39,440 nucleotides of DNA from Desulfurobacteriaceae bacterium (GTDB taxonomy: Bacteria; Aquificota; Aquificia; Desulfurobacteriales; Desulfurobacteriaceae). Made by a program: the position numbers and the translations under genes. The stretch is from positions 1-39,440 of the forward strand of contig JBDOLX010000114.1 in the NCBI GenBank assembly GCA_039832905.1. Direction: 5' to 3'. Below, piece by piece: positions 501 to 27,490 of this stretch (positions are counted from its first letter, which is position 1; each line of letters begins with the position of its first letter). The notes beneath the pieces are model-generated. The model saw only the letters and a program-made list of their open reading frames with translations, made no database searches and was not told where the DNA came from.

Positions 501-736
501 AACCAACCAGCTCGGTTCTGACCAGTCTGCCAATTCTGGTAATTCTGATTTTTGAAAAGCGAAATGCACAAGTGCAAAGTGTAAAGTGTAAATGCAAAGA
601 GCAAAATGCAAATTGACATTCTGAATTTAAATTAAGAATTTAAGTTTCTAATTTCCCGTCTCTTCAAATAGCTGTATAAAGTTGTGTAAGGGACTTCAAG
701 AATCTTAGCAATAGATGCTACTGATACACCTTTTTT

Positions 737-1237
737 CTAAACTCTTCTATATTGGTCCTTGTATTTGTCTAGTCCAGAAGAATAGCTACCTTTAGGACGT
801 CCAAGGGGTTTACCTTTTGCTTTTCTTCTCCTTAAAGCTTCTTTTGTTCTTTGACTAATTAATTTCCTTTCTATTTCTGCAGTTATAGAAAAAGCCATAG
901 CAAAGACTTTGGATTGCAAATCATCTTTTAAGACTTGCTTGTTCTTTACAACGTGAAGTTCCACACATTTTCTTAACAGAATGGAAAGGATTTCCATAAT
1001 CTCCAGCATAGATCTACCGAGTCTGGAGAGTTCGGTAATAATCAAAACATTTCCTTTCGAAAGCATTAAGAATAAGATCTCCTACCTTTCTAACCTTTCA
1101 ACTTTTCCTACCACTTATAGTTTCTTCTATAATCTCAATATTTCCTAGCTTTTTCTCATTAGCATATCTAAGAATTTCAAATCTTTGGTTTTCAGTCTCT
1201 TGTCTATCTGTAGAAACTCTTATGTAAGCACAGACAT
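737..1237 (-). pseudogene. Serine recombinase (resolvase/invertase family) pseudogene; degraded paralog of the intact gene at 27986-28594
   Basis: The C-terminal 109 codons (737-1066) are ~95% identical in protein to residues 60-170 of the 202-aa resolvase. The upstream N-terminal region still aligns at DNA level, but ATGTCTGTGCTTACATAAGAG replaces ATGTCTACTTACGCTTATATAAGAG (frameshift and stop), and the Trp codon of ...RKSW... is TGA. Confidence 0.8.
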
Positions 1238-1335
1238 TCTCAGAAAACCTTACATGTATTCTAAATTCAAAGTACTTTACCTGTCTTAACGAGAGTTTAT
1301 ACTAAATAAAGATAACTCATCAAAGGGAGGGATAA

Positions 1336-2770: not shown

Positions 2771-2847
2771 CTTTTCTGAAGAGAAGAACTTTTTGTAACT
2801 GGAAGTTTTGCGATAATTCCTTGAAAAGATGGTCGTAGGTTTTCCGT

Positions 2848-3471
2848 ATGATAAAAGAAATAAAACAGACAATAGAATTTTACAATCAGTATGCAGAGAA
2901 ACTGATAGAAAAATACGAAAAAGCAGAACCTAAGAAACTTCAAACTTTCATATTGAAATCGCTTCCTGGTAGAGAATCTAAAATTTTAGAAATAGGATTT
3001 GGATCAGGACGAGAACTAAAGTTTTTAATGGAGAATGGTTATCAAGTTTGGGGAGTAGATGGTGCAATAGAGTTTGTTAAGTTGGCAAAAAAGAGATTTC
3101 CTGAGATATCTAATCGTTTTTTCCACGCTTGTCTTCCAGATTTAAATCTTCCTTCTAACTATCTCAAGTTTTTTGATGTAATTATTTCTATCGCGGTTTT
3201 AATGCATATTCCAAAAAGGTTTTATAGACAAATTGCTAAGAACTTGGCTAAGTATCTAAAAGATGATGGTGTAGTAATTTTGAGTTATAGCTTAACTCCT
3301 CGAGAAGAAAGAGAAAGATTTTTTGAAAGGATGGATCCGAAAGATGTTTTGGAAGCCTTTTTAGCTGAAGGTTTTAGAAAAGAAGATGAACTAAAAACAT
3401 CGGATGCTTTCTTAGAAAGAAGGGATATCCTGTGGATTACAGAGGTATATAGACTTGAAAGAAAAGATTGA
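2848..3471 (+). CDS. Class I SAM-dependent methyltransferase (small-molecule type, not a DNA MTase)
   Basis: Motif I ILEIGFGSGRE; overall ~200-aa Rossmann MTase layout. No DPPY/NPPY or cytosine-C5 motifs. Confidence 0.7.
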   Translation: MIKEIKQTIEFYNQYAEKLIEKYEKAEPKKLQTFILKSLPGRESKILEIGFGSGRELKFLMENGYQVWGVDGAIEFVKLAKKRFPEISNRFFHACLPDLNLPSNYLKFFDVIISIAVLMHIPKRFYRQIAKNLAKYLKDDGVVILSYSLTPREERERFFERMDPKDVLEAFLAEGFRKEDELKTSDAFLERRDILWITEVYRLERKD

Positions 3472-4021
3472 CATTGAGTATCTGATAAAGGTTAACAAAG
3501 TCATAGAACGGGAAAGGAAAAGCAGTACTTATAAGCTTGCCCTTATGTAGATGTAAAATCTTCAACAGACCTATAGATGTTCATTTAATAGGTGATCTTG
3601 CTTGGTTTTGAACTTCTGGGACCGAATAACTTTCTTTAATCCTGTTTTTCTTGAGTGCGTGTTTTCAAACAAGCAAGGGCTTCTTTCACAAGGAGGGATT
3701 TCACTGTTTGTGATTTTTGATTGTTTTTGAGAACGGTAATAGAAATTAAAAAAGATATATTTGAATGTATTCTATATGTAAATAGCATATAAATAGTGTA
3801 TGCTTTATGTATACTTTCTACACTTAAGATAGATACTCAGTTTATTATGGAGAAACTTTGTTTATAGTTCCTAAAGAGAGAATAAGAATCTTAGGAAAAT
3901 CTATAAAAGAAACTTCAGAAAGGATTTCTAGCTGGATATTTGGAAAATAGAAAGAAAAAAAAGAACTTAGGAAAGAGAAATCCTCTCCAGAATGGTTCAG
4001 TTTATCTTGTTTGTGGAAAAT

Positions 4022-4291: not shown

Positions 4292-4924
4292 TTACATGTC
4301 ACTTACAATTAGACTATCTATTTCTTTAATAAGCGTTTTTATTTCACGACACGCTTTAGAATTGGGGTTATACTCACAAACTGAAAGACCGTTTTGATAG
4401 GATCTTTTGTAATCTACGCGACGAAAAATTTTAGAGTTAAAGATTTTGAAAGTAGGAGAGGATTCTACAAACTTTTTTAACTCTATAATTTCCGAAAGGC
4501 TTCTTGCATCTGCATTGTTTATTAAAACATACACGTTTAAGTTAGGATTATACTTTCTTGCTTTTTCTACCACTTTCTCAAATTTTTGTAGACCAAAAAT
4601 TTCTATCTGACTAGGAGATACAGGAGTAATAACCATATCTGAAACAACTAGAGCAAATCTGTTAAGGTCATTATCGTAACCACCACTATCTATAAGAAGC
4701 TTCTCATTCTTCCTTTCCTGCAAAATCGTTTTTATATCCTCAAGAGTTTCAGGAGTAAATACTTGTAATAATTTTCCTTGTTCCCTTTCCCGAATTTTTG
4801 AGAAAAGATAACAAGAGTGCTGACTGTCCAGGTCTATAATCGGAACCTGCATTTCTACAGCGAGGTTGACTGCTATTGTTGACTTACCTACTCCTCCCTT
4901 TTGATGGGCTACGGTAATTATCAT
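4292..4924 (-). CDS. parA: ParA/ParF-type partition ATPase (small type Ib)
   Basis: Deviant Walker A KGGVGKST at residues 9-16; 210 aa. Followed by an RHH protein, with a repeat-rich upstream region at 5040-5320. Confidence 0.85.
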   Translation of the reverse strand: MIITVAHQKGGVGKSTIAVNLAVEMQVPIIDLDSQHSCYLFSKIREREQGKLLQVFTPETLEDIKTILQERKNEKLLIDSGGYDNDLNRFALVVSDMVITPVSPSQIEIFGLQKFEKVVEKARKYNPNLNVYVLINNADARSLSEIIELKKFVESSPTFKIFNSKIFRRVDYKRSYQNGLSVCEYNPNSKACREIKTLIKEIDSLIVSDM

Positions 4925-5260: not shown

Positions 5261-5337
5261 AACTGTAAAGTTTCCGTAGAAGGAATTTGTTTGAAGGCAT
5301 ACATTAGCAGAATCTTAACCATAAGTTGAGGGGAGTT

Positions 5338-7382
5338 ATGGCTTTAAAGGATTTAGAGTTACCTTTTTGTATGAATACCTCAGAGAATGATTTAGTAAAG
5401 GAATTCTTTATTCCCTTATTAAAAAACTCTATCGAATATAAGAGGGGAGTGGGTTTTTTCTCTTCTGGATGGTTTAAAGTGGTGTCAGAGGGAATAATCA
5501 ATCTTGTTCTAAATGGTGGAAGAATTAGACTTATAACAAGTCCTATTCTTTCAAAAGAAGACTATGAAGCCTTAATAAAGGGAACACAAGCAGCACGGGA
5601 TAGAAAGCTTTATGAAGCTATTTTGTTTTCCATAAAAGATTTAAAAGAATCTCTTGAAGAAGATACTTTATCAGCTATTGCTTGGATGATTGCAGACGGA
5701 ATAATGGAGATAAAGTTGGCAGTTCCAAGAAATAATTTAACAGGAGATTTTCATGATAAATTCGGTATTTTCATCGACAGCGAAGGAAACAAAGTAGCTT
5801 TTTCCGGTTCACCAAATGAAAGTATACAAGGTATGCATAATTACGAATCTATAAAAATTTTCCCTTCATGGAGAGATCTTACATCAAAAGAAATTGCTGA
5901 AGCTGAGGATTGTAGATTTGAATTACTATGGAACGATAAAGATCCAAATTTAAAAGTTTTTTCAATCCCAGAGGCAGCAAGAAAGGAGATTCTTAAGTTA
6001 AGGACAAAAAAAAGACCTTACAAAAAAGAAGTAATCTTAAGTGCATTTAAAGAAAATAACTTACCTGTTCTAAGAAATTATCAAAAAGAAGCGGTTAGTA
6101 AGTGGGTTAGTAATAACTTTCAAGGCATATTTGAGATGGCAACAGGAACGGGAAAAACTTTTACTTCCTTGTTTGCAATAAATGAATTTATTAAACATTC
6201 AAAGCGAAACTTAATAGTAATTATAGTTCCTTTTGTTCACTTAATAGATCAGTGGGAGAAAAACGTTAAGTTACTGTTTAAAGATCCTATTAAATGCTGC
6301 GGTTCGAAAAACAAATGGTTATCAGTGTTGAGAGACAAAATTTTGATACAAAATAAGGGGGATATAGAAAACTTAGTCGTTATTTCTACCATACAAACAG
6401 CTATTAAAGATTACTTTCTTGAGGTTATTCGTAAAGCTTCTGGTAATAGTCTAATCGTTATTGATGAAGTTCACTATGCTGGTGCACCTGAATTTTCAAA
6501 AATACTTGATCCATTCTTTAAAGCTCGTATCGGCTTGTCTGCTACTCCGGTTAGAATGTGGGATGAAATTGGAACTGAGAAATTGGAGGAATATTTTGGT
6601 GGTGTTGTTTATCGCTTTCCTTTAGGAAGGGCTATTCAGGAAGGTTTTCTAACTCCTTACGAGTATCATCCTATTTTAGTTGAACTTACAGAGGAAGAGT
6701 TTGAAGAATATCAACTGTATTCAGAAAAAATAGCCAAGTTGCTTGCCCGCGAAAGTTTATCTGAAGAAGAAAAGAGTAAGAGGTTAGAACATATTCTCAT
6801 TAGTAGAGCTAATCTTTTAAATAGGGCAAAAAATAAGTTAAAGGCTTTAGAGAAATTAATAGTTCAGAATAGACTCATTAAATACAGTATTTTTTATTGT
6901 GATCCTTTACAAATTGAAGAAGTTTCTAGTATACTTAGAAAATATAATATAGTTATTTCTAAATTTACAGCTAAAGAAACAAAAGAACAGCTAAAGAAAC
7001 AAAAGAAGAAAGAAAGCTAATCTTAAGTAAATTTGAGGCAGGAGAAATAGAAGCTTTGGTTGCAATGAAGTGTTTAGATGAGGGAGTGGATGTTCCTGCT
7101 ACACAATATGCATATTTCCTGTCTAGTAGCACGAACTCACGACAGTTTATTCAACGAAGGGGAAGAATCTTACGCAAATTTAAGGGAAAAGAAAAAGCAG
7201 TAATATTTGATTTTATCACCGTTCCTCCTAAAGACCGCGAAATTTCACCAGTTACCCGTAAAATCTTATCTAGAGAGTTCAAGAGATTTAGAGAATTTGC
7301 TTCATATGCAGTTAATAAGTATAGGGCTAAAAAGGAAATACTTGATGTTGCAAAGAGATATCACCTTTTAGATGAGGTTTAA
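5338..7382 (+). pseudogene. PLD-family nuclease / SF2 (DEAD/DEAH-like) helicase fusion, interrupted by a 20-bp tandem duplication (6968-7007) that shifts frame. ORF fragments 5338-7020 and 7056-7382
   Basis: N-terminus has an HxK...GSxN-like motif (HDKFGIFIDSEGNKVAFSGSPNES). Helicase motifs I MATGTGKT, II DEVH, III SATP in the first ORF; motif V LDEGVDVP and motif VI QRRGRILR in the second ORF. Removing one copy of CAGCTAAAGAAACAAAAGAA restores an uninterrupted ...KETKEERKLILSKFEAGEIEALVAMKCLDEGVDVP... reading. Likely ATG start at 5338 after a GAGGGGAG RBS; the ORF track starts at TTG 5326. Confidence 0.8.
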
Positions 7383-7546
7383 AATGAACTTTGAAAGAAT
7401 AAAAAAAGAAATAGAGACAAAAGATTTAATTGTGATAAAGGCTTTGCTTGAAATTTTAGAGGTTGAAGAAAAAAAGATAGGGCTACAGAGACCCAAAGGA
7501 ATAAAAGACGATATAAGAAAAATTTTTGATCGCTGGGGAAAGGAAT

Positions 7547-9493
7547 ATGATCCTGAAGAAAGTTAAGGTTAAGAACTTCAGACAATATTATGGTGAACAA
7601 GAACTAGAGTTCTCTACGGATCCAGAAAAGAATATTACCTTAATCTATGGAAAAAATGGTGCAGGAAAAACTTCTCTTTTTATGGGTATAAACTAGGTTC
7701 TCTATGGTTCGTCAGAGGTAAAAATAGAAGGTAAAAAAGTTAATAAGAAGGCAATAGATGAAGCAAAAGAAAAGGGTGAAGAGTTTGTAGAATCAGAAGT
7801 TGTTCTTACTTTTTCTCATGAAGGGATTGATTATCAAATAAAGCGAAAAGTGGTGTACGATGTAAAAGAGGATATTGAACATCCGGAAGAAGTGCAGATG
7901 GAGAAGATTTTTCCAAAAGTTGATGAAATATCAAATTCGTTGATAGCCTTAAATCCTATATTACCCCCAAATGTTCGAAGTTACTTTTTCTTTGACGGGG
8001 AAAAGATAGATGAATTTTCTAAACCTGATCACGACAAGGAAGTAAAGGAAGCTGTATACAAGGTTCTTGGTATTACTTTGATAGAACGGGCGATATCTCA
8101 TGTAAGAGATATTTTAAGAGAATATAACAAGGAACTGGCAAAAAAATCCTCGGGTAGATTGAGGGAGTTAAGAGAAAAATACAATGATGTTTTACAAGAA
8201 AAAGAAAATTTAGAAAACGAATTGAAGGAAGCAAAAGAAGAAAGGGAAGCACTGGAAGCTAACATAAGGGAGGTGAAGAGTAGGCTTAGGGAAATAGAAG
8301 AAATCCAACACTTGATAGAAAGGAGAGATGCTTTAGAAAGTAAATTAACAAGTATGGAGTTGGAACTTTCCAAAATCTATTCAAAACTTAGGAAAGTAAT
8401 CAATAAAAGTTTCCTTTTAATAGGTAGTATTTCTATAGAAGAGGCTTATGAAATACTAAGTAAGGAAATAAAAAATTCTGCTGATATTCCTAAGAAGTTT
8501 TTATCAAAGTTAATAGAGAAAATCTTAGAAGAAAAGGAATGTATATGTGGTTCAGCATTAACTCCGGAAATGAGAAGAAAACTTATAATGAAAAAAGCGG
8601 AAATTGCCCAAATGGCGAAAAGTGATAAGACAGAAGAAATAGTAAGTTCCATTATTGCAGAAATTTCAGGATTGAAGAGTAAAAAGGAAACTATACATAG
8701 TGAATTAATTTCTCTTTTTAGTGAGAAAATGAGATTAATGGATAAGATTCAGAAAACCTATGAGGCTTTAGATGAAGTGGATCAGCAGTTAAGTAAAAAT
8801 GAGTTGGAAGATGTAAGAAAACTTCAAGGTTTACTTGAAGAATATACAAAAGATTTGGGAAGATATACTCAAAAGATAGAAAGCATAGAGGAAAAAATAA
8901 AGGAAAAAAATGAAGAAATATTGTTCCTACAGAAGGAGATTAGTAAGGAAGAAAAGAAAGAGAGAGAAACTAATGAATTAACTAGGAAGAAGAATCTAGC
9001 GCAGGCAGTTTTACATCAACTGGAGACTCTCTATGAAAAGTTGTCTTTCAACTTAAGAAAAGAGATAGAAAGTGAAGCTACAAAGATATTTAAGAAGTTG
9101 ATTAGGAAAAAGGAATTCTTTAAACGTATAGAACTTTCTGAAGACTATCTCCTTAAGCTTATAGATGCCTTTGAAGATAGAGAATCTAAAAGAGAACTTT
9201 CTGCTGGAGAAAGACAAGTATTAAGTTTAGCTTTCATATTAGCATTGGCAAAAGTATCAAAGAAAGAAGCTCCTGTAGTTATGGATACTCCTTTTGGTAG
9301 ATTGGATCCAGAGCATAGAAGTAATATTCTTCAAGAGATTCCCTATTTAACACGTCAGCTTGTTCTTTTTGTAACTCCTTCAGAAATGACAGAGTCTCTT
9401 AAATTGCTTATACAAGATAAAGTAGGAAAGGAGTATGAACTTGATTTTAATGAACAGGAAAAATATACAAAAATTGTTCCTTTAGAGAGGTAG
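7547..9493 (+). pseudogene. DndD-like SMC/ABC-family ATPase (648 codons) with a single in-frame TAG at 7694-7696. The annotated 547-aa ORF (7850-9493) lacks the Walker A segment
   Basis: ATG 7547 preceded by an AAAGGA RBS. MILKKVKVKNFRQYYGEQELEFSTDPEKNITLIYGKNGAGKTSLFMGIN-stop-VLYGSSE... gives a Walker A GKNGAGKTS. Continuous frame into 7850-9493. Long coiled-coil middle. C-terminus LSAGERQVLSLAFILALAKV...VMDTPFGRLDPEHR resembles the DndD signature (DTPLGRLD). Confidence 0.75.
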
Positions 9494-9497
9494 ATTT

Positions 9498-9902
9498 ATG
9501 ATTTTGGAAATTTCTTTAAGGGACAAAATTTATATAGATGAAGACACACATGATATATACAAGAGGCTTAAGGAGGATTTAAAACTCTTTGATACTATGA
9601 AAGAACTATTCTTAGTAGCGGCAGCTGTAGGATATTATAACAATAAAAGAGTACCTTTAAAAAGGAGAAAAGATATTTTCTCTAAAAGTATTTTCGATAA
9701 GGAAACTGATATTCCATTTATTTATGTATTAGCATTAGCGGGAGAAAAAAGTAAAGAAGTTTTTCAAAAAGATGTTTTAAGTGTAGTTGAAGAATATGCT
9801 AACGGTGGAATTAGAATTTTGGCTGAAAAATTTGAAAATGTGAGAAAAATGGAAGAAGCTATAGACGAATTTAGTGCTTATTTAGTGGAGAAGTTTGGGT
9901 AG
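9498..9902 (+). CDS. Hypothetical 134-aa protein between the ATPase and the DUF262 nuclease
   Basis: AGAGAGG RBS; 4-nt gap from the preceding gene and overlaps the next gene. No recognisable motif. Confidence 0.55.
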   Translation: MILEISLRDKIYIDEDTHDIYKRLKEDLKLFDTMKELFLVAAAVGYYNNKRVPLKRRKDIFSKSIFDKETDIPFIYVLALAGEKSKEVFQKDVLSVVEEYANGGIRILAEKFENVRKMEEAIDEFSAYLVEKFG

Positions 9903-12027
9903 ATATTTGTTCGGAGGAGCGGAAGTGGGAGTAGAATATAAAAAGTATGAGTTAGAGAAATTCTTTGATCTTATAGATAGTGGAAAGATAGTTCTTCCAG
10001 AATTTCAAAGAGGATATGTATGGTCAATAGGAAAACAAAAAAGATTTCTTGCTAGTATTTTAGTAGGATTGCCAGTTGGAAGTACTCTTCATATTGAAGG
10101 TTCAGCTGGTGACTTTGTTGCAAGAGCTATTTGTGAACGACGAGAAGTGAACCCGAAAGAAGAATGTGAATATCTTTTAGATGGTCAGCAGAGGATTTCT
10201 ACTCTTTATAATATTTTTCAAGATATTTATGAAAAAGAAGAAACAAGGGATTGGAAAAAAGTCTTAAATTCTCTCTTTGATAAGCTTAGATATAGATGGT
10301 TTATTAAATTATCAAAGGAAGATGATATCTTTGGACTTAAAACATTAAAATTTGATCCAAGTAAGCTTCTTACTCTTGAACCTAGAAGAGTGGAAGAGTA
10401 TATAGAGGTGAAGAAAATAGAAGATATAAAGGAAGAAAAAATACAGAAAAAAAATGCTTGGTACCATCCTGCATTTATTCCTATAAAAGATGGACGAAAA
10501 CTTACAGGTCGGTTATCTGAATTGGAAAAGGCAAGATTGGCTGCAGAGGAATATTTAGTACCTTTGTTTGAAATTAGAAAGAAAGAGTTAGGATTGCATA
10601 GGCAAGTTCTTAAGCAAATTGCTAAAAGAAGAGTAGAAGAATTACAAGCAGAAGTAGCTGATGGAAAACTTAAGTTGAGAGATATATTGTCAGATATTCA
10701 TCCAGATATAGATAACTTGGACGAAAGAACTATTAATGAAGTATGGACAGAGTTGCAAATTAGTTGGGTAGAGGATGTTTCAAGATATCTAGAAGGATTA
10801 CTAAAAAGAGAAATTCCTGTTGTACTTTTACACAAAAATGAAATAGGTAGAGCTGCTGTTATTTTTGAGGAATTTAATACTGGAGGAACTAAGTTAGAAG
10901 ATTTCGATTTGTTTGTTGCTAAAGCAGCTAGAGTAGATTCAGAGAGGTCACTTGTAAGAAGGATAATGAATGTTCTAGATAGATCTTTTGATACTACTCA
11001 TTTAGAAAATGAGGCTATAAATTGGAAAGCAAATTTATTTACTCCAACAAAAGAGTTAAGTAAGAAATTTAAAAAGATATTTTTGAATTCCTTATCGTTA
11101 ATAGTATTTTCTCTGGAAAAAGGAGAAGAGCTTTCGAAAGAAATGACTCTTAGTGGTAAGATTCTTTCTTTACAACCTGAAGATGTAGTTAAATATACTG
11201 AGAGAGTAACAGAAGCTATTGTGAAAGCTTTTGCGTTTCTACAGTTGAAGTGTGGGCATGTTAATGAAAAATCTATTAGTTATGAATATATGATTTTACC
11301 AATAGTGTATGTGTTCTATTGTAAAGATGACATATGGTACGATAATAGCATTCTGAATAAGATAGGTGCTTGGTTTTGGGGATCTTTGTTTGCTGGTATG
11401 TATAAAGAAAGACAGGATGATCAGTTAATTAAAGATATAAAAATGCTTAAAGCTTGGTTAGTAGATGGAGAAGAAGATTCAGAAGAATTTAGGCGTTGGA
11501 AAACTGTTGTAACAGATAAAATATTTAATAGGGAAGGTTATTCAGACTGGGAGACACTGTTAAATAAAAATCCGGAAACAGAAGCACCTAAAGCTATTAA
11601 GAAAGCTATACTGAACTATATTCTTAGTAAGAAACCTGTAGATTTTTTACCGGATCAAGAGATTAATCTTACTGCGTATAAGTGTGCTAATGGTAATTTT
11701 AAGTTGGAAGAGCATCACATTATACCACTAGCAAGTGCAACTAAAATAGGAGAGTCTACAAAGAAGATAAGAAAAGAGAAAAAGCATATTTTGAATAGTC
11801 CCCTCAATCTTACATATATCTCTGATTCAGCAAATTTAAGAATCAGAGATAAAAGAATAGATGAGTACTTTAACGAGTTGGGACACTTTAAAATAGGTAC
11901 CCACATTTTTCCAACGGATATAAGGAAGCCTCAGAATGACGAAGAAAGAAAAGAAATTCTTAAGAAACGTTTGGAACTTTTGAAACAGAGTGTGACCTCT
12001 GAAATCAATATGTTACTAAATTCCTAA
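9895..12027 (+). CDS. DUF262 (ParB/Srx-like NTPase) + DUF1524 (His-Me finger nuclease) protein, GmrSD/SspE-like
   Basis: N-terminus has LPEFQRGYVW and LLDGQQRISTL. C-terminus has EEHHIIPLASA...NSPLNLTYISDSAN typical of DUF1524. The track start is TTG 9895; a GTG at 9925 preceded by GGAGGA is the more likely start. 3' end overlaps the dndE 3' end by 23 nt (convergent). Confidence 0.8.
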   Translation: MGRYLFGGAEVGVEYKKYELEKFFDLIDSGKIVLPEFQRGYVWSIGKQKRFLASILVGLPVGSTLHIEGSAGDFVARAICERREVNPKEECEYLLDGQQRISTLYNIFQDIYEKEETRDWKKVLNSLFDKLRYRWFIKLSKEDDIFGLKTLKFDPSKLLTLEPRRVEEYIEVKKIEDIKEEKIQKKNAWYHPAFIPIKDGRKLTGRLSELEKARLAAEEYLVPLFEIRKKELGLHRQVLKQIAKRRVEELQAEVADGKLKLRDILSDIHPDIDNLDERTINEVWTELQISWVEDVSRYLEGLLKREIPVVLLHKNEIGRAAVIFEEFNTGGTKLEDFDLFVAKAARVDSERSLVRRIMNVLDRSFDTTHLENEAINWKANLFTPTKELSKKFKKIFLNSLSLIVFSLEKGEELSKEMTLSGKILSLQPEDVVKYTERVTEAIVKAFAFLQLKCGHVNEKSISYEYMILPIVYVFYCKDDIWYDNSILNKIGAWFWGSLFAGMYKERQDDQLIKDIKMLKAWLVDGEEDSEEFRRWKTVVTDKIFNREGYSDWETLLNKNPETEAPKAIKKAILNYILSKKPVDFLPDQEINLTAYKCANGNFKLEEHHIIPLASATKIGESTKKIRKEKKHILNSPLNLTYISDSANLRIRDKRIDEYFNELGHFKIGTHIFPTDIRKPQNDEERKEILKKRLELLKQSVTSEINMLLNS

Positions 12028-12373
12028 AGTCTTCAAGCTTTTTAACCCTATTATAGAGGAGATCTGCTCCTCTATTTATATGTGCTCTGAAAAGCTCAAG
12101 TAGAAGTTTTTCATTTTGCAAATCAAAGCCATCTTTGTAAGCCCTTTGCTTAAAAAGACAAATCAAGATAGTGTCTAAATCACCAAGTAAAACATGCCTC
12201 ATTAACTCTTGACCATCTTGTTTATACCAATTCGGATCTGGTAATGTGGGGTCTTTCAAAGATAGAACCAAACCAAATCTACAGAGAATATTAGGAGTAA
12301 GACCTGTTCTTCCTTTTAGTATAGAAAGTTTTTGGCTAACTTTCTTGTCTAGGATAATCCTGTTAAATTTCAT
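12005..12373 (-). CDS. dndE: DNA sulfur modification protein DndE
   Basis: 122 aa, immediately downstream of dndD with a GGAGAGAG RBS. N-terminus MKFNRIILDKK...LKGRTGLTPNILCRFGLVLSL resembles the DndE family. Confidence 0.65.
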   Translation of the reverse strand: MKFNRIILDKKVSQKLSILKGRTGLTPNILCRFGLVLSLKDPTLPDPNWYKQDGQELMRHVLLGDLDTILICLFKQRAYKDGFDLQNEKLLLELFRAHINRGADLLYNRVKKLEDFRNLVTY

Positions 12374-12392
12374 TTTCTCTCTCCTAAAGCTA

Positions 12393-14327
12393 CTAATTCC
12401 AGAAGTATCCTTTTTGCACTTTTGTACACATACAATCTTCGTCGTAGACCAATAGATAAGAGTGTGATATATGTTTCTTCAATATGTTGAAAAGTTCTTT
12501 GTCCACTTCTACATTAGTAGACAAAATAATCACTTGATGGCTAATTTGTGGGAAATAATTATTAGCAAGATTTTCTCTGTGTTCGTTATCCAATCTACCT
12601 AAAGGAGTGTCTATAATCACTGGTAACTTTTTACCCGAGGTTTTTGCAAGTCCCCATAAAAACGATATTGCAAATATTTGTCTTTCTCCTGAAGAGAGTC
12701 TATCAATAGGAATTTTTCTATTATTCAAGTCAAAAAGAGTAATTTCAAAAGTTTCAGGGTCTATATGAAGATCTCTTATAAAATTCTCTTTTCTTTTAAG
12801 CTTATAAAGGGCATCTAGTATTTCTTTTTCCAAGATTTTTACCTTTCTTTTTATAAATTCGCTTCTGAACCTGTTAAGAACCTTCTGTGACTTTTCTATT
12901 AGGGAAATAACTCTTTTCTTCTTTGTCTTTTGTTTAATGAAGTTTTCTAATTTTTCTATCTCCTTTTCTATCTTTCTCTTCTCTCTTTCTAACTTATTGA
13001 CTTCTTCTTCTAACTGTTTCTTTTTAATTTCTGCTTCTATCTTTTCTTGGTCTAGCTTAGATATTTTTTCTAAATAGGGTCTGATAACCTCTTCGTCTGG
13101 AACATTTTGTAAACTGCTCTCGACTTCTAGTAACTCTTCTTCTAAGGTTTCTAATTTACGAAATAGTTCTTTAGCTTTATGTAAAGTGTTGGTTTTTAGG
13201 TTCTGTACTGCTATTTCTAGTAGTCTGTTTTCTCTTTCCGAAAGATCGTGAATGATGTCTATTTTAATTTCTTTTTTTACAAAGAATAGTCTTTTTATAT
13301 TTTCTAGCGTATCTTTATCTAAAGGAATGGATTTCAAAATACTTTCAAGTTCTTTGTACTTATTTTTTAGTATCTCTTCCTCAAACTTTATTTTTTTTAT
13401 CTCTTTTTCCATTTCTAGCTGGGCTAGAAGTTCTTCTAATAGATTTATACCTAGTGCAAGAGGTAAATCTTTGGAAGAAATTTCTCGTATCTCATTCTTA
13501 ACTTCTTCTATTTCGTTTTCCAGGAATTCTTTTTTGGATAGGTTTCTTTCATAATTTCTAAATAACTCTCCACCTTTTTCAATAAACTTTCTTTCTGCTT
13601 TCTTTAGTTCTTTTTCTAAATTGATTCTCTTTATTTCTAAACTAGCAATTTCCTGTTTTTTCTTTCCTAACTCTTCTTCTATTAGTTCTCTTTCTTCTTC
13701 CAGTTTGTTGAGTTCCTTTTGAATTTCTTCAGAGAAATCCTCTTGATGAAGATATCTTTTTCTTAATATTTCTAAACTATAGTTTAGAGTATCTACTACT
13801 GTAACTCCTAAAAGAGACTTGACGTCATTCACAAACTCTACTTCTGAAAAGTCTTCTGCAAGTTTTTCTATTTTCTCTCCATCAAAGAAGAAAAAGTTAA
13901 CCAAACTTGGAGGAATAATATCAGAAATAAATTCTTGCCATTGGTTTTTAGGAATTTCCTTATAAACTTCATTGTTTTTGTAAAGAAGAAATTCTTCTTT
14001 AAAACTTTTATTAAGATCCCATTTCCTAATTACTTTGTAAGTATCTTGAGATTCTAAGGAAAAATAAACAAACTCAAGTGATATTTGGGCAAGGTTCTCT
14101 CCTTTATGTATAAGTTTTCGAATAAACTCTTCATATTGTTTCTTTGTGTATCCGTAAATATTGTTACCGTATAAACATAACTTCACAGACTCAAGTAATG
14201 TAGTCTTTCCTGTTCCGTTTTTTCCACCAAACAAAATAATGTTTTTTCCTTTTCTTGGCTTTAAATCAAAAACATTTCTTCCTTTGTAAAGACCTATATT
14301 TTCTAAGGTTAAAGAAGTTAAAATCAT
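12393..14327 (-). CDS. dndD: DNA sulfur modification protein DndD (SMC-like ABC ATPase)
   Basis: Walker A GGKNGTGKTT; long coiled-coil. C-terminal signature LSSGERQIFAISFLWGLAKTSGKKLPVIIDTPLGRLDNEHRENLANNYFP characteristic of DndD. 4-nt overlap with dndC. Confidence 0.85.
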   Translation of the reverse strand: MILTSLTLENIGLYKGRNVFDLKPRKGKNIILFGGKNGTGKTTLLESVKLCLYGNNIYGYTKKQYEEFIRKLIHKGENLAQISLEFVYFSLESQDTYKVIRKWDLNKSFKEEFLLYKNNEVYKEIPKNQWQEFISDIIPPSLVNFFFFDGEKIEKLAEDFSEVEFVNDVKSLLGVTVVDTLNYSLEILRKRYLHQEDFSEEIQKELNKLEEERELIEEELGKKKQEIASLEIKRINLEKELKKAERKFIEKGGELFRNYERNLSKKEFLENEIEEVKNEIREISSKDLPLALGINLLEELLAQLEMEKEIKKIKFEEEILKNKYKELESILKSIPLDKDTLENIKRLFFVKKEIKIDIIHDLSERENRLLEIAVQNLKTNTLHKAKELFRKLETLEEELLEVESSLQNVPDEEVIRPYLEKISKLDQEKIEAEIKKKQLEEEVNKLEREKRKIEKEIEKLENFIKQKTKKKRVISLIEKSQKVLNRFRSEFIKRKVKILEKEILDALYKLKRKENFIRDLHIDPETFEITLFDLNNRKIPIDRLSSGERQIFAISFLWGLAKTSGKKLPVIIDTPLGRLDNEHRENLANNYFPQISHQVIILSTNVEVDKELFNILKKHISHSYLLVYDEDCMCTKVQKGYFWN

Positions 14328-15760
14328 TCTTTGTTAACCTCTCTTAAGATTTCTTCTTCTGTTCTCCATTCTTCGTTAAGAATTTTTTCAAGTTTCTTGA
14401 TAAGGGAGGTTTTTCTTGAGGAAAAAGCATTATACTGGCAAGTGTTAAGTAACTTGATTATTAGTCTTGGGTCTACATTTTCTTCTGTTGCCAATGACTC
14501 TATTAATTTCCTATCTTCCGCTGAAAAGACTCCAATATCTTCCTTTGGAATTTCTAACTCTTTTTCATAAACTTCTTTATAGATTTTTGCGACGCTATCT
14601 TCCCAATCACCTTCTTCCAGTTTCCAAATTCTTCTAATTTCTAAAAGTTCTTCAAGAGATATTAATTTAATTTCTTCTTCATAGGGATTATTCTCATTTA
14701 TCTTCTTCTCAGTTTCTAAAAGTTCTTTTAGGAAAATTTTTCTATATTCAAACTTGTAAGGTCCTCTCCCTAATTTCTTAGTTCCATTTCCATAGCTATT
14801 TCTTAAAAAGTATATACTTCCATCTCTTCTTTTGTAATCACGATAGATATGCTTATTTTCTGGATCTTGAGTTTTAACAAGCAATTCCCTAAATTCTTGA
14901 AGAGGGCGCAGCCAATTTTCCCCACTTTCTATAAGAGAACTAAGAGATTTTTCATTCTTAACAACAGTACAGACCCAACAACCGAATCTACTGTTACCTC
15001 CTGTCTGTTCATCAGCTGCAACTAAATTTCCAACTATAATAGGTGGTTCTCCCGCATTTGCTTGTTTATACATTTCAAATAACTCTTGATTGTTTCCTCC
15101 CCATGGAGACTCAAAATTAAGTAAATAATTCCAAACATCTTCAACTGTCCAGTCTTCTATAGGCGTGTAAACTAGAGCTCCAGGAAGAGTTGAATGTCTA
15201 GATAATCTACTATTTTCTATTTTGTGTTCATTTATCGTTTTCTCTCTATTGAGGCTTTCTGCCTTTCTAACTCCTAAAACTACAATAACTTCTCCATATT
15301 TACTTACTGTTTCAATTACAAATCTATTTGAAGGTTCTATCTTTAGTCTATCTGTGCACCATCTAAATTCTTTAGTGGGGGCAGGGTAACCTCTTCCAAT
15401 CAAATTAACCCAAAAAGTATCTGAAATTCGGGGACATACTTTTACAGCTTGAATAGGTAATCCTTTTTCTTTAGCTGCTTTATTAATAAGGGTAAGATTT
15501 TTATCTACGTAGTTTATGACTTTAGGGATTTCTATTAGTGTATCGGAAGAGAGTACGTATATAGGCTTTCTTAACTTATTTCTCGGCATTCTTTCTAAAG
15601 CTTCCCAAACCAATTGTAATGTTGCTGTAGAATCTTTTCCTCCGCTGTACCCTATTATCCACGGATAGCTATTTGAGAAATAAATATTCTCGATCTCTTT
15701 GTAAAGAGTATCTAAACTTTTTCCACCAAATAGAAAGGATTTTTTAGATTTATGTGACAT
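14324..15760 (-). CDS. dndC: DNA phosphorothioation protein DndC (PAPS-reductase-like ATP pyrophosphatase)
   Basis: PP-loop SGGKDS near the N-terminus; cysteine cluster RFGCWVCT; 478 aa. Operon position between dndB and dndD. Confidence 0.85.
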   Translation of the reverse strand: MSHKSKKSFLFGGKSLDTLYKEIENIYFSNSYPWIIGYSGGKDSTATLQLVWEALERMPRNKLRKPIYVLSSDTLIEIPKVINYVDKNLTLINKAAKEKGLPIQAVKVCPRISDTFWVNLIGRGYPAPTKEFRWCTDRLKIEPSNRFVIETVSKYGEVIVVLGVRKAESLNREKTINEHKIENSRLSRHSTLPGALVYTPIEDWTVEDVWNYLLNFESPWGGNNQELFEMYKQANAGEPPIIVGNLVAADEQTGGNSRFGCWVCTVVKNEKSLSSLIESGENWLRPLQEFRELLVKTQDPENKHIYRDYKRRDGSIYFLRNSYGNGTKKLGRGPYKFEYRKIFLKELLETEKKINENNPYEEEIKLISLEELLEIRRIWKLEEGDWEDSVAKIYKEVYEKELEIPKEDIGVFSAEDRKLIESLATEENVDPRLIIKLLNTCQYNAFSSRKTSLIKKLEKILNEEWRTEEEILREVNKE

Positions 15761-16796
15761 ATTTTTCTCCCAATATCTTCTTTAGAATGAACTCTGCTGT
15801 AGCTTTTATGTTTACGTTAGCTTTACTTAATCTACCTTTGTTTAGTGCTATTCCTTCCCACTCAGGATTATTTCTATGCCAGTCTATATCTTTCAGCCTA
15901 GAAAGAATTTCTCGTAGGTTTAATTGCTTTTTGATAATTACGCGACCTACTATAGCGATAGCGTTCAGAAAAAGTCCATGAGAATGGATGTATTCTTGTC
16001 TTGCCTTATAAGCAGCTAGTTCGCCTTTTTTTATCTTTTCCCACTCAGGAATGTTCCTACCTACTTCTTCCCAGAATTCAAAAGAAAGTATTCTGTCTTC
16101 TTCGCTTATTTCCACTTTGTTGCCTTTCTTATCTAGAAATTCTTTGGTAGCATGATAAATGCTACTTAGTGTAAAAAGTTTATTTGATCTATTTGATATA
16201 GAGCTTCTTTCATACTCTACTAAGTCTTTGAAATAGTAAACGTTTTCTGCAAGATATCTAGTTAACTCCGCCATCTGATCTCTATAGTCATATAGGATAC
16301 TAATGGATGGCGTTGGTTTTACGGAATACCTGTTCAAGTCAGTAAATATTTGCTGACTTCGTTCTAGTCCTAAATCAATAAAAACAACCATTGAAATTGT
16401 TTCGTAACCTAGTTCCGGATTTTCTTGAAGGGCTTGTTTTATAGCTTCAATCCTGTGTTGTCCGTCATTTATTATGATTCTTGAGTTTTTATCTATTTTA
16501 AGTTTTCCTATTTGATAGTTTTCTTCACTAATGGCTTCAAATTCCACTTTCCCATCAACGGAAATAGTGATTGAAGAAAAAACGTAAGTGTATGGGTTAT
16601 CCAAAATGTACTTTTTTATTTCTGGAATCCTTCTTTTATTGAGAATTCTCTGAGCCCTTAGTTTAGGTGGAAGTAAAGGAATGTTTATCTCTTTAAATAT
16701 CTCTGGAATTAGTTTTAATGGACACATTACAGTGTAAAATTCTTTTCCTGCTTGAATTCCTCTAACAGCAGGAAAGGTATAAAAGGAATTTCTCAT
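15750..16796 (-). CDS. dndB: DndB (DGQHR-domain regulator of the dnd operon)
   Basis: INDGQHRIEAI (DGQHR motif). N-terminus FPAVRGIQAGKEFYTVMCPL resembles the DndB family. Overlaps the dndC start. Confidence 0.8.
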   Translation of the reverse strand: MRNSFYTFPAVRGIQAGKEFYTVMCPLKLIPEIFKEINIPLLPPKLRAQRILNKRRIPEIKKYILDNPYTYVFSSITISVDGKVEFEAISEENYQIGKLKIDKNSRIIINDGQHRIEAIKQALQENPELGYETISMVVFIDLGLERSQQIFTDLNRYSVKPTPSISILYDYRDQMAELTRYLAENVYYFKDLVEYERSSISNRSNKLFTLSSIYHATKEFLDKKGNKVEISEEDRILSFEFWEEVGRNIPEWEKIKKGELAAYKARQEYIHSHGLFLNAIAIVGRVIIKKQLNLREILSRLKDIDWHRNNPEWEGIALNKGRLSKANVNIKATAEFILKKILGEKYVT

Positions 16797-17119: not shown

Positions 17120-18913
17120 TTAAAAAGCAAACTCATACTTTACGACCGATCCATCCATTCCAGCCGAAATTAAATAATTTCCATCGTTTGAAAAATCGAT
17201 GGAGTTTACAAAGCCAATATGGGCAGGAAGTTTCAGAACAAGGTCACTATTTTCTAAGTTAAAAACGAGAAGATTTCCTTCAAATGTTCCACACGCTAAG
17301 AGGTCGTTACTTAAAAATTTTAAAGTGGAAGGTTCTTTCACTTTTAAGCTAGCTTCTGTGAAACCTGTTTCTGTATCTACGATTTCTATTTCTCCGTTAT
17401 TTTTACCAACTGCAAGAAGTTTTCCATCGTTAGAAAATGTAAAAGTTGATACTTCTTTTCCAAAGTTTTTTATTAACTTACGATTTGTAATGTTTTCAAG
17501 TATAAACTCGGAATTTTCGTAAAAGTAACAGCCCAAGAGAAAGTTATCTCTGAAAGTCATTGCTGAAAGACAAAAGTCACCAATTGGAATCTCAGAGGTT
17601 TCCCATGTTTTAGTATTTATCAACACTACAGTACCGAAACATCCTGCTGCAAGGGTTGTTCCGTTAGTTGAAAAAGTTAAAGAACCTACAAATGTTGGAC
17701 ATGGAATTTTTTTGATAACTTCTTCCTTATTGGTATCAACAATAACAACCTTTTTATCTTCGGTACCACAGGCTAAAAGTCCTGTTTTGGAATTAAATGC
17801 TGCTGATTCTATAAATCCATCAGTTTCAGCTATCTCCTTAAAGCTTCTATCTTCAAAACTATATCTAAAAATCTTTGTATCCGCCACCAAAGAAAAGGAC
17901 TCCTTCGAACAAAATACAAACTTTCCAGGTTCAGTAGGATCTATTTTCCAGACGATTTCGTCTTTATCTAAATCCCACAGCTCAATTCCAAGACTTCCTG
18001 CTGCAAGGTATTTGCCATCGGGACTGAAAGATATTGAGTAGATCTTTTCAAACTTTCGCATCCCTTTTTTGTAGGGAAGGCTACTTTTTAACTTTTTAAT
18101 TTCTTCCAGAGTTTCTAAATCAACAAGACTTATTTCTCTAGCTTTTCCAAGGGCAATTACCTTTCCATTAGGACTGAAAACAGCAGATACGGAATTATCA
18201 AAAGTTTCTAAAACCTCTCCTGTTTCAATATCTACAAGACACGCTTTCTTCTTCCTTTCTGAGAGTTTTTTATTATCCATTTGGTGAAAAATCATTCCAC
18301 AAAGGAGAAGCTTTCCATCGTGACTTATATCAAGGGAAAAGAGAGAACATTTTGAATTTTCATGAATACTAAACGATTTAATTTCTTTTCCTGTTTCGGC
18401 ATTAAATATTCTTATTGTTTTGCCTTCTGCGTACATTATTCTTTTACCGTCAGGGGTAAAAGTTAAATATCCTCCACACTCAATCCCTTGTTCCCATAAG
18501 ACATCTCTTGTCTCTAAATCCCTAAGCTGGAGATAAATTAAAAACTCAATTCCTTTTTCTTTTCGTATTTCTCTTTTAGTTATAACAGCAAAAGTTTTAC
18601 CGTTAGGATTCACTTTAACACTTTCTACAAAGTCAAAGTTTTCTGCTATAAAGTCTGTAGATTTACCGCTTTCAATATCGACAAAATCAAGGATTTCATT
18701 TGCCCTCAGAACTAATTTACTGTCTATTGTGATGTCGATATCGTAAAGCCAAGCTTTATTACTCAGCGTCCAGAGAAGAGTTCCACTTTCTACATCCCAA
18801 CATTTCGTAAATGAGTTACAGGTAGAAATCAATTTTTTTCCGTCAGGCGTGAAACTAAGATGTTTGACCCATGAAGGATGACTGGCTGATTGAATAAGTT
18901 TTTCAACTTTCAT
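17120..18913 (-). CDS. WD40 beta-propeller repeat protein, 597 aa (about 14 blades), no other domain
   Basis: Repeating ~40-aa units with FSPDGK/SNDGK...G.....W(D/E) patterns throughout. AAGGGAG RBS. Confidence 0.85.
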   Translation of the reverse strand: MKVEKLIQSASHPSWVKHLSFTPDGKKLISTCNSFTKCWDVESGTLLWTLSNKAWLYDIDITIDSKLVLRANEILDFVDIESGKSTDFIAENFDFVESVKVNPNGKTFAVITKREIRKEKGIEFLIYLQLRDLETRDVLWEQGIECGGYLTFTPDGKRIMYAEGKTIRIFNAETGKEIKSFSIHENSKCSLFSLDISHDGKLLLCGMIFHQMDNKKLSERKKKACLVDIETGEVLETFDNSVSAVFSPNGKVIALGKAREISLVDLETLEEIKKLKSSLPYKKGMRKFEKIYSISFSPDGKYLAAGSLGIELWDLDKDEIVWKIDPTEPGKFVFCSKESFSLVADTKIFRYSFEDRSFKEIAETDGFIESAAFNSKTGLLACGTEDKKVVIVDTNKEEVIKKIPCPTFVGSLTFSTNGTTLAAGCFGTVVLINTKTWETSEIPIGDFCLSAMTFRDNFLLGCYFYENSEFILENITNRKLIKNFGKEVSTFTFSNDGKLLAVGKNNGEIEIVDTETGFTEASLKVKEPSTLKFLSNDLLACGTFEGNLLVFNLENSDLVLKLPAHIGFVNSIDFSNDGNYLISAGMDGSVVKYEFAF

Positions 18914-19358: not shown

Positions 19359-21704
19359 CTAAAATCTACAAGCGAAAAACATAAGTATCTTGTAATATCT
19401 TATATCTACAAGAAGTTTGAACGCCTCTACTATATATAAATAGTCCTCTCTTACTCCCCTTTGCTCCAATATTTGTTCTAACTCCTTGAAGCTTCTAAAC
19501 TCATCTCTCAACTTTAACTCATTTTTCAACTTGTTCTTTAACCCTATTATCTTTTTTGCAAAATCTTTAGTACCTTTAATATCTGGATAATTTTCTCCTG
19601 TTTTTTTCTCGTATGTTTCCGCCTTATCAAATATAGAACGGTTACCTTCACTTATATTTAGTTTAGACTCTACTAAAAAGATGTTTCCTATATTATTTAC
19701 CCATTTTTCATAGTCCCAGTCTCTTTCTTTTTCTTCTTCTAAGGAGTAGGGAAGATCATTTTTATAAAAGTCCCTCTCTATTCTTTTAAATGCTTCTTTT
19801 AGTAAGTCTTTTTCTTGCGAATTAACGGAAAACAAGTGTTCTCTCTGTAGACCTCTTGGTCTTTTAGATAAGGGCTTTAGTATGTTTTTCTCAAATGATG
19901 ACTTATCATAGTCAAAATTAATTCTTTCAAATTCAGCTAAAACGTAAAAGTAATCCTCTCTAAAGTCATAAATGGGATATTTATAGAAATCCTTTCTATA
20001 ACATTTGTTAGATTGAGAACTGATAAATCTATACTTTCCTTCCTTTAGATGATTGGAAAAGTTAAAGAGTCCTCCCCAAGGACGTTTACCAAGTTTCCAA
20101 ACAAACATTTCTGAAAACTCTAAAATATTGAGTATATAAGCTCTTTCTGTTAAAAACTCTTTCAAACACGAAGATTCATGTTTGAGATACTCTTCAAGGA
20201 ATTCGGCAGAATCTTTAAATTTTTTCTTCAAGTAATCAATTCTCTTTTCTAATCTCTCCTTGAAGGATACAAGTCCTAACTTTTTCTTCCTTTCTTCTAA
20301 GAGAAACTTCTGTTCCTCTTCAACATCAAAAGTTTTGTTAAACTTAAGTTCCGAGTTAAGATTCAAAGCTATGTAATGTGTAAATCTTGAAGCCCCATAA
20401 ATGCCCAAGAATTCTCTAACGGAATAAGAAAGTTCATTACTCAGAATATCAATGCCTGATTTCTCTACATTGGTAATACTTTCTTTTAATGTTGAGTAAT
20501 ACTGCTTAATTTCCTTTAAACTTTCATACAAAACACTAAATAGTTTCTTAGCTTCACTTTTTAGATCGTAATTTATAAGATCCCTAAAGGCTTTATTTAT
20601 TGCTTGATATATAGTATCTTCCCCTGATTCATACCATATATCTATTGAGTACTTAATACTTCCATCCAGAGAAGAACTTTCCTTCTCTTTCTTAATTACA
20701 TCTATCACATATCTATAGAAACTTTTTCCACTTACTGCATTAGATCTATATAAAAGGAGATTTAAGAGATGCATTGTAGTGGCTTCTGCTTCTTTTGCAC
20801 TTTTGAAAACCATGAATCTTTCTGAAGTTAAGGACTCTAAAAGTTCGTAGATGTCTGCAAAAAGTTCATTAATATCGTTGTTTTTTTCATTTCTTACTTC
20901 TTCCCCAAATAATAAGTTAGCATAATAAATCATTAAGCTTTTAAGTTTTTCTAAGGCAGTTAATCTTTTACCTCTATCCGTCTGAGAAACAAAGATGTTT
21001 ATAAGTTCAGAAAATGCTGTTTCCTCTTCTTTTTTCGTTAGTTCTCTTACATTAATAACTGTTTTGATAACTTTTAGATTCTCAAGGGATTCATACAATC
21101 TACTACTACTATGGTTTGCAAGATTTTCAATAAAATAACAAAAAGCTCTCCTCATTAATTCTTGACTGTAAGTTTTAGGACATAGCTTTTCAATGTTTTT
21201 AGCATTAGCAAGTTCTTTCAAGAAATCATAGTCTATCGGAGATCCAAGAAAAATTCTTGGTTCAGAATCCTCGACGAACAGTTTTTTCTTTATTTCACTT
21301 TCTTTACCCATTCCTTTCAACTTTCGTAGCATAGCAAATAAAAATAACCATAAAGTTGTTAATCTTTGTTGTCCATCTATAATGAGATAAAACTTGGTTC
21401 TTTCATTTTCCAAGTTTTTAATCTGCTGGTAAACTTTTTTATTTACAAAATTCTTTAACTCATCTAAAGCAACCTCTGCCAAGAACACAGTACCAAAGAT
21501 ATAGTTTCTTATATCTCTTTCAGATACATTTTTGATATCAAAGAAAAAATCCTCTATCTGTTTTTTTTCCCAAGCATAAGGTCTTTGATAATGTGGTATG
21601 AGATACAAAACATTACCTTCCAATAATCGAGGAAACTCTGTTAATTCAACATCAAATATTTTCTCATTTTGCTTTTTAGAATCCATACAGTCCAATTTTT
21701 TCAC
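19359..21704 (-). CDS. DUF262 + DUF1524 (GmrSD-family) protein, 781 aa
   Basis: LIPHYQRPYAWEKKQIEDFFFD and YLIIDGQQRLTTLWL (DUF262). C-terminus LQREHLFSVN...NIGNIFLVESKLNISEGNRSIFDK (DUF1524-like). Start codon uncertain (GTG 21704, TTG or ATG a few codons in). Confidence 0.8.
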   Translation of the reverse strand: MKKLDCMDSKKQNEKIFDVELTEFPRLLEGNVLYLIPHYQRPYAWEKKQIEDFFFDIKNVSERDIRNYIFGTVFLAEVALDELKNFVNKKVYQQIKNLENERTKFYLIIDGQQRLTTLWLFLFAMLRKLKGMGKESEIKKKLFVEDSEPRIFLGSPIDYDFLKELANAKNIEKLCPKTYSQELMRRAFCYFIENLANHSSSRLYESLENLKVIKTVINVRELTKKEEETAFSELINIFVSQTDRGKRLTALEKLKSLMIYYANLLFGEEVRNEKNNDINELFADIYELLESLTSERFMVFKSAKEAEATTMHLLNLLLYRSNAVSGKSFYRYVIDVIKKEKESSSLDGSIKYSIDIWYESGEDTIYQAINKAFRDLINYDLKSEAKKLFSVLYESLKEIKQYYSTLKESITNVEKSGIDILSNELSYSVREFLGIYGASRFTHYIALNLNSELKFNKTFDVEEEQKFLLEERKKKLGLVSFKERLEKRIDYLKKKFKDSAEFLEEYLKHESSCLKEFLTERAYILNILEFSEMFVWKLGKRPWGGLFNFSNHLKEGKYRFISSQSNKCYRKDFYKYPIYDFREDYFYVLAEFERINFDYDKSSFEKNILKPLSKRPRGLQREHLFSVNSQEKDLLKEAFKRIERDFYKNDLPYSLEEEKERDWDYEKWVNNIGNIFLVESKLNISEGNRSIFDKAETYEKKTGENYPDIKGTKDFAKKIIGLKNKLKNELKLRDEFRSFKELEQILEQRGVREDYLYIVEAFKLLVDIRYYKILMFFACRF

Positions 21705-22695: not shown

Positions 22696-23024
22696 CTCAA
22701 CTACCCTATAATCCAATATATTAAAGCTTACAACAAGCAATAATAAGAATAAATTTGGACAGAAAGTGACCTATAAAAAGGTTTTCTTCTTTAAAAGCAA
22801 GTCTTAAAGAAAAACATCAAATCTGTTCCAAATTGCTTTGAAAATATCTATGGAAAACTTGAAAACAAAGTTTAATGTGTTAAACTAAAATACACTAAAT
22901 TAGTTTAATGGATTACTAATAGATATAGCTAAAAGACTTAAGGTTCCTGAATGAATTCTTCTACCTTCTTAAAGTCTATCTAAACCTCTATGCTGTATAT
23001 GTTTTATGCGAATGAAACTCCCCG

Positions 23025-27215: not shown

Positions 27216-27369
27216 CGTATCCCTCAGTAAGCTTTATTTATGCATATCTACCTATGTGTATAGAATTTACATCAACTTTGTCAAGTTTTCTACTGCAAAT
27301 CCACACTCCCAAAATATTGAGATGAAGTTTTACTATTTATCTTTCTTCAAAAATCTCATAATGAAAAAA

Positions 27370-27490
27370 GAGTTTCTACAGATAAAGAGGAGATAGAAAA
27401 CCAACGATTTGAGATTCTTAGATATGCTAACGAGAAAAAGTTCTGTCACCAAAAATTGACTTATCCTGCCAAAAAATTAGATTCTCCTTA
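27370..27490 (+). pseudogene. 5'-truncated fragment of a serine-resolvase gene start (RVSTDKEEIENQRFEILRYANEKKFCHQK...)
   Basis: About 95% DNA identity to 26073-26190. No start codon. Ends 24 nt before the antitoxin-like ORF at 27514. Confidence 0.7.

Follow-up and report, generated by a model that had tools for sequence, protein, structure and literature searches.

The DNA analysed here, referred to as the window, is the whole of contig JBDOLX010000114.1 (39,440 nt; assembly GCA_039832905.1) from a Desulfurobacteriaceae bacterium. Between positions 5326 and 7382 its plus strand carries pbeA, a gene for an HKD/PLD nuclease fused to a superfamily 2 (SF2) helicase, the reading frame of which is broken by a tandem duplication. 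Two head-to-tail copies of the 20-nt unit CAGCTAAAGAAACAAAAGAA occupy 6968-7007: copy 1 (6968-6987, plus strand) encodes (T)AKETKE of PbeA, and the extra copy 2 (6988-7007, plus strand) shifts the ribosome into the +2 frame. Direct reading, a repeat search and a script were concordant on this point, and Tandem Repeats Finder reported 6967-7007 with a period of 20, 2.0 copies, a 100 % match and a score of 82; the exact 20-bp duplication described in the initial annotation is thereby borne out.

Strict periodicity spans 41 nt (6967-7007), which leaves a junction ambiguity, or microhomology, of 1 nt (A). When the window was simulated 100 times with a first-order Markov model, not one exact tandem duplication with a unit of >13 nt appeared. 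The window itself holds three others with a unit of at least 14 nt (units of 14, 21 and 22 nt), all of them inside tandem-repeat arrays (288-375, 36695-36870 and 37406-37500). The duplication region is A-rich and of low complexity, and has a weak overlapping 9-nt periodicity (78 % match, score 45 in Tandem Repeats Finder). The duplicated segment is flanked by a perfect 8-nt inverted repeat, AAATTTAC / GTAAATTT at 6961-6968 / 7027-7034, the left arm of which (6961-6968) ends precisely at the left-hand border of the duplication. The inverted repeat may have helped to bring the duplication about, or may be a product of chance in AT-rich DNA.

Two origins for the duplication were considered and rejected. 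Classic repeat slippage is not indicated, the junction microhomology being only 1 nt, and slippage via the internal AAAGAA repeats, which lie 9 nt apart, predicts a duplication of 9 nt rather than 20 nt. Typical target-site duplications are shorter than 20 nt; the unit is thus too long for the usual footprint of transposon excision, and no remnant of an insertion sequence (IS) is present.

The broken reading frame

The extra 20 nt amount to a +2 shift, such that after KETKE ten wrong residues (QLKKQKKKES) are added before a TAA stop at 7018-7020. The locus therefore reads as two open reading frames (ORFs), 5326-7020 in frame 1 and 7056-7382 in frame 0. When one copy (20 nt) is deleted the two fuse into a single frame of 678 codons from TTG 5326, or 674 codons from ATG 5338, and the uninterrupted frame of approximately 680 codons which had been postulated for the unduplicated gene is recovered. 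As encoded, the 5′-part of pbeA (5338-7020, plus strand) specifies 560 residues from ATG 5338; the ORF list starts it at TTG 5326, and the NCBI call (P0001), which uses a later Met as start, is 549 residues in length and labeled “DEAD/DEAH box helicase family protein.” It contains the HKD/PLD nuclease domain, RecA-like domain 1 with motifs I-III, and the start of RecA-like domain 2. The 3′-part (7008-7382, plus strand), which is out of frame, begins ERKLILSKF... and holds helicase motifs V and VI together with the C-terminal helices. NCBI annotates the ORF at 7056-7382 separately, as a 108-residue “helicase-related protein.”

The protein obtained upon removal of one copy, hereafter the repaired protein, matches the PADLOC PbeA profile PDLC02707 with an E value of 5e-233, its residues 3-660 aligning with positions 2-671 of 672. 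It also matches NCBIfam TIGR04095 (dnd_restrict_1, “DNA phosphorothioation system restriction enzyme”) over positions 9-451 of 451 with 478 bits, a score which lies below the curated cut-off of 600. Pfam matches are to ResIII (244-406), DEAD and Helicase_C (500-606). The N-terminal PLD/HKD domain is recognized by PADLOC PLD_Helicase on residues 17-243 and by NCBIfam phospholipD_antiphage on residues 17-343, and the HKD nuclease signature consists of HDKFGIFID at 139 and GSPNES at 157. The description of the gene as a restriction-like PLD-helicase was thus correct, and can be narrowed to pbeA.

The helicase motifs of the repaired protein are ATGTGKT at 268 (I), DEVH at 376 (II), SAT at 401 (III), LDEGVDVP at 573-580 (V) and QRRGRILR at 599-606 (VI). 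The duplication sits at KETKE (546-550), directly after the strand at 540-544 which precedes motif V; this agrees with the placement of the frameshift between motifs III and V in the initial annotation and makes it more precise. With the break at residue 550/551, the encoded product comprises the nuclease domain, RecA-like domain 1 and a stump of RecA-like domain 2, and lacks everything from the helix at 549-560 onward, motifs V and VI included. SF2 motifs I-VI are found in one polypeptide only when one copy has been removed. From what is established for SF2 helicases, we infer that the truncated PbeA, lacking motifs V and VI, is unable to hydrolyse ATP or to translocate on DNA.

The homologues of PbeA are uniform at this site. 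All 119 (635-774 residues) cross it without a gap; that homologues might naturally end here, a possibility which had been raised against the frameshift, did not prove to be the case for any of them. The surrounding segment follows the local motif F-T-x-x-E-x-x-x-x-R-x-x-(L/I)-L, in which F, R and L are invariant, and the repaired protein regains all three as F543, R552 and L556. The nearest full-length homologue, from Persephonella atlantica (P0002), is 68 % identical, has exactly the repaired length (674 residues) and aligns gap-free to repaired PbeA across the break region. Its AlphaFold model (mean predicted local distance difference test score, pLDDT, of 86.8, and 91-94 locally around the break) places a strand at 540-544, a short loop, and a helix at 549-560 within the second RecA-like domain.

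The remainder of the pbe operon

The operon partners expected of pbeA, namely a small PbeB, a CxC ABC-ATPase PbeC and a DndE-like PbeD, are all present downstream on the plus strand. The pbeB candidate (7372-7566) encodes 64 residues and has no family match; in position and size it resembles the 65-residue gene of a relative, L001 (GCA_017880035.1), and the small protein of the published systems (PMC6459918, PMC10853773). The pbeC gene (7547-9493) has 648 codons and specifies a CxC-type ABC ATPase with Walker A at 35, CIC at 332 and the signature LSAGERQ at 551. It too is interrupted: codon 50 is an in-frame TAG (7694-7696), giving GIN*VLYG, and both halves of the gene match PbeC profiles (E values of 2e-19 and 3e-91). 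The one pbeC homologue which was directly aligned, that of L001, has Trp at this position (GINWVLYG), and the stop is consistent with a single TGG to TAG transition. This premature TAG lies 670 bp downstream of the pbeA break and is independent of the duplication. Recoding of TAG was rejected, as it serves as an ordinary stop in 6 of the 25 confident genes of the window. The pbeD gene (9498-9902), which is intact, specifies a 134-residue DndE-cognate or dnd_assoc_4-like protein; its score against TIGR04062 is 61.5 bits, below the cut-off of 74.25. A promoter scan was uninformative, with 14 sites versus 26 expected.

The gene order in L001 is dndC-D-E, pbeA (677 residues), IS, pbeB (65 residues), pbeC (652 residues) and pbeD (138 residues). 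The IS, at 12043-12885 of that sequence, carries a DDE_Tnp_1 transposase and separates pbeA from pbeB, a case of mobile DNA disturbing another pbe operon.

PbeABCD was described by Xiong et al. 2019 (PMC6459918). In the one archaeal system tested there, defence depended on all four pbe genes; pbeB, pbeC and pbeD were absolutely required, and deletion of pbeA left less than ten-fold protection. Given these deletion data, a frameshifted pbeA and a truncated pbeC mean that the PbeABCD module of the window is doubly disabled and most likely dead, and its phosphorothioate-dependent antiviral activity is predicted to have been lost.

The dnd cluster and a DndI-like gene

Convergent to pbeABCD, on the minus strand, lies dndBCDE (12005-16796), so that the pbe genes are adjacent to the phosphorothioation genes dndC and dndD. 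All four dnd genes are intact and give full-length profile matches: dndE (12005-12373), dndD (12393-14327), dndC (14324-15760) and dndB (15750-16796). DndC falls into a 90 %-identity protein cluster common with DndC of Phorcysia thermohydrogeniphila, a member of the same family, which possesses dndBCDE at 80 % DNA identity and a convergent GmrSD-type gene, and no pbe genes.

Between the two clusters is an intact plus-strand gene (9895-12027) for a 710-residue protein with an N-terminal DUF262 (GmrSD_N) domain, a DGQQR NTPase motif and an HNH-like C-terminus with a nuclease-like HH...N pattern. The 5′-end of the gene overlaps the 3′-end of pbeD, and downstream of it lies a terminator-like hairpin at 12053-12075. 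Similarity to the GmrSD-type protein of Phorcysia is only weak. By domain layout and position the DUF262-HNH protein is DndI-like, and it may be an effector which is still in use; DndI itself is a phosphorothioate-sensing nuclease with the layout DUF262 plus HNH (PMC11662687).

The plasmid and its relatives

The window starts and finishes with the same 19 nt (1-19 and 39422-39440), and this 19-mer is unique to the ends. Because of these ends, together with a ParA gene (4292-4924) and a Rep candidate (37583-38854) preceded by iterons (22 nt x 4.3, at 37406-37500), the window is most likely a complete circular plasmid of approximately 39.4 kb (closed circle of approximately 39,421 bp) bearing a defence island. 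The NCBI proteins neighbouring the locus are MEO2069591-MEO2069601, with ABGX27_ as locus-tag prefix. A near-identity DNA search with 5326-9500 against the PLSDB plasmids returned no match, nor did a protein search with the Rep candidate against the same database.

Six contigs from several metagenomes (L004-L009) encode a ParA of the same 90 %-identity cluster. Their parA region has 84-88 % DNA identity to that of the window, and a second match, to window 5290-5638, stands at 87 %. Each contains a 108-residue ORF (e.g., L004 9154-9480), the first 99 residues of which are identical to PbeA of the window at 92 of 99 positions; after residue 99 the similarity breaks off at a rearrangement junction with a methyltransferase segment (window 2803-3544). 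The cargo of these plasmids consists of HNH, McrBC and PLD genes instead of pbe-dnd. Their ancestor carried pbeA, of which only this 5′-portion survives in them.

The plasmid of the window also encodes toxin-antitoxin genes and resolvases. One resolvase paralogue (638-1238, minus strand) is a pseudogene with a TGG to TGA stop and several indels versus the intact copy at 27986-28594, to which it is approximately 85 % identical; two short N-terminal resolvase fragments lie at 26052-26162 and 27369-27449. The resolvase pseudogenes are older than the pbe lesions and reside on the same element, from which it is clear that real gene decay occurs here.

Other contents include an FtsZ-like gene (21724-22740, minus strand; 293.7 bits versus the NCBIfam ftsZ cut-off of 295.2), adjoined by a second GmrSD_N protein (19359-21704), with a 597-residue WD40-repeat protein nearby (17120-18913). 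Ankyrin-repeat proteins are uncommon in bacteria; one of 445 residues (31124-32461) adjoins an SPFH/NfeD pair (29761-31051). Two long imperfect arrays based on heptamers, AGTAGTA x ~19 at 237-375 and TGAATGC x ~25 at 36695-36870 (with super-periods of 21, 35 and 42 nt), are both located near the presumed replication region.

Interpretation of the duplication

We consider it probable that the duplication is real and, on the evolutionary scale, recent, and that it abolished the function of the plasmid-borne pbeA of a PbeABCD system paired with dndBCDE. The 20-bp duplication shifts the pbeA frame by +2 and truncates PbeA, which would be inactive; the Pbe arm of the defence island would no longer be under selection and would be shed step by step. 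The DndI-like nuclease possibly takes over phosphorothioate-dependent restriction, which would render Pbe redundant, and the duplication would then be one young step in a process in which dndBCDE and the second candidate effector are kept. The lesions are called young because there is one per gene and all motifs are preserved. Of the recent inactivating slippage suggested in the initial annotation, the recent inactivation is the best supported of the three readings offered there; the slippage is not upheld, the microhomology at the junction being only 1 nt. A decaying restriction arm also fits the report that dnd modification is often decoupled from restriction modules (PMC10853773).

Several points weigh against this interpretation. 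The locus is known from a single metagenome-assembled genome (MAG) record without a near-identical second assembly. Exact-pattern searches for the one-copy or the two-copy allele gave 0 matches in the genome and metagenome contig collections; a locus search guided by repaired PbeA found none in the genome contigs and only one, 36 %-identical, in the metagenome contigs, and no contigs encoding P0001 or the Persephonella product are on record. The term “recent” has the absence of further lesions as its sole basis, and the nearest full-length homologue, at 68 % identity, is too distant a reference for relaxed selection. As to redundancy, the DUF262-HNH protein has no sequence match to PADLOC SspE, NCBIfam or the PDB.

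Some points favor an error of assembly or sequencing, or a minority allele captured in the consensus, with the real pbeA being single-copy and intact: the contig is from a MAG and seen in that one record, the collections contain no independent assembly of the locus, and the sequence there is rich in A and low in complexity. We nevertheless regard this as unlikely. The junction at which CAAAAGAA is followed by CAGCTAAAG is absent from an unduplicated template, and a k-mer or overlap assembler should need reads which contain it in order to produce it; the 40 nt concerned fit within one short read, and the consensus errors of long reads are typically homopolymer indels and not clean 20-nt copies. 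Neighbouring lesions of other kinds, namely the substitution in pbeC and the several lesions in the resolvase paralogue, also point to real decay on this element.

A reversible switch, in which the duplication turns pbeA OFF and the precise loss of one copy by misalignment turns it ON again, was the second proposal of the initial annotation, and to us appears slightly less credible still than an artefact. Perfect tandem repeats are intrinsically prone to precise deletion through misaligned replication, and pbeA is fully intact apart from the duplication. A switch by intragenic duplication is moreover documented, on the account of Waite et al. 2001 given in PMC11163986, for cap3A. The pbeC stop, however, is a nonsense codon which slippage cannot reverse, and reverting pbeA alone would not restore function because pbeC is stopped and was absolutely required in the tested system (PMC6459918). 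The many-copy tract of short units which characterizes simple-sequence-repeat contingency loci is lacking, there being only two copies of a 20-nt unit; neither repeats nor length variation occur at the site among the homologues, and the genome and metagenome contig collections yielded no other allele. The related plasmids, too, lost the gene by deletion and not by toggling. The TAG in pbeC, which is not a slippage product, and the sister plasmids with most of pbeA deleted thus weaken the proposal. A more elaborate form of it, in which the plasmid lineage toggles the Pbe nuclease-helicase as a population-level contingency and the pbeC stop is a minority or strain-specific allele, is in our estimate more improbable again. 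Were it true, the locus would be the first restriction module of the phosphorothioate-dependent type to show phase variation, and in a thermophile, and the switch could admit unmodified foreign DNA or avert self-damage during a lapse in phosphorothioation.

The gene might also be functional as encoded, through -1 ribosomal frameshifting or through separate ORFs whose products reassemble, though we assign this hardly any probability. As the 20 nt amount to +2, a -1 shift would restore the frame and yield full-length PbeA with a seven-residue insertion, and translation could restart at TTG 7056 or ATG 7065, an AGGAG being present at 7040-7044, 11 nt upstream of TTG 7056. Against this, a slippery heptamer of the canonical form X XXY YYZ is lacking in 6988-7017, and shuffled sequences fold as well as the downstream RNA (z = 0.07). 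The insertion or split would interrupt the RecA2 fold where a confidently modeled helix begins, in a segment with 0 insertions or deletions across the 119 homologues, and pbeC is truncated as well.

Comparison with known systems

The locus shares with PbeABCD (PMC6459918) the same four-gene order and sizes, a pbeA with PLD/HKD, ResIII and Helicase_C domains, a pbeB of approximately 65 residues, a DndD-like CxC ABC-ATPase as pbeC, a DndE-like pbeD, and adjacent dnd genes, here dndBCDE. In the re-annotation by Krishnan and Aravind (2024; PMC10853773), PbeA is an HKD-nuclease/SF2-helicase, PbeB a small protein, PbeC a CxC ABC ATPase and PbeD a DndE cognate. The locus of the window differs in that pbeA is frameshifted and pbeC prematurely stopped, in the presence of dndB, whereas the archaeal prototype is dndCDEA, in the DUF262-HNH gene appended behind pbeD, and in being carried by a small plasmid whose host, a hot-vent bacterium, is a thermophile of the Desulfurobacteriaceae.

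The closest parallel for a switch is cap3A of Streptococcus pneumoniae, where tandem duplications switch capsule production (Waite et al. 2001, as related in PMC11163986). In both cases a perfect tandem duplication frameshifts and inactivates an ORF, and the precise loss of one copy would restore it. In cap3A, according to that account, both states are seen and interconvert, and the pathway is otherwise intact; in the window the OFF state alone was observed, the system is not otherwise intact in view of the TAG at codon 50 of pbeC, a second and irreversible lesion in the operon, and in relatives pbeA has been deleted.

Solitary clusters of dnd modification genes, uncoupled from a restriction partner, have been recorded (PMC10853773). 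These, and the IscS-DndBCDE-DndI arrangement (PMC11662687), resemble the window in that the modification genes are intact and the linked restriction module is absent or degraded; the latter arrangement also has a DUF262 plus HNH nuclease beside dndBCDE. By comparison with the solitary clusters, the window displays loss in progress, with two single-lesion pseudogenes, rather than an end state, and by comparison with DndI, a sequence search with its DUF262-HNH protein retrieved no solved structure.

Significance

As a genuine recent lesion, the duplication is an ordinary pseudogenising tandem duplication in a known defence gene on a new plasmid, and not a new mechanism. Its value is chiefly for annotation and ecology, and it opens no new mechanistic question. 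The two deposited coding sequences are one broken pbeA, and pbeC is likewise a pseudogene; censuses of defence systems would otherwise score this plasmid as having a working Dnd-Pbe system. For the biology of such elements, the locus provides a clean snapshot of the shedding of a restriction arm, with the modification genes and a second candidate effector retained.

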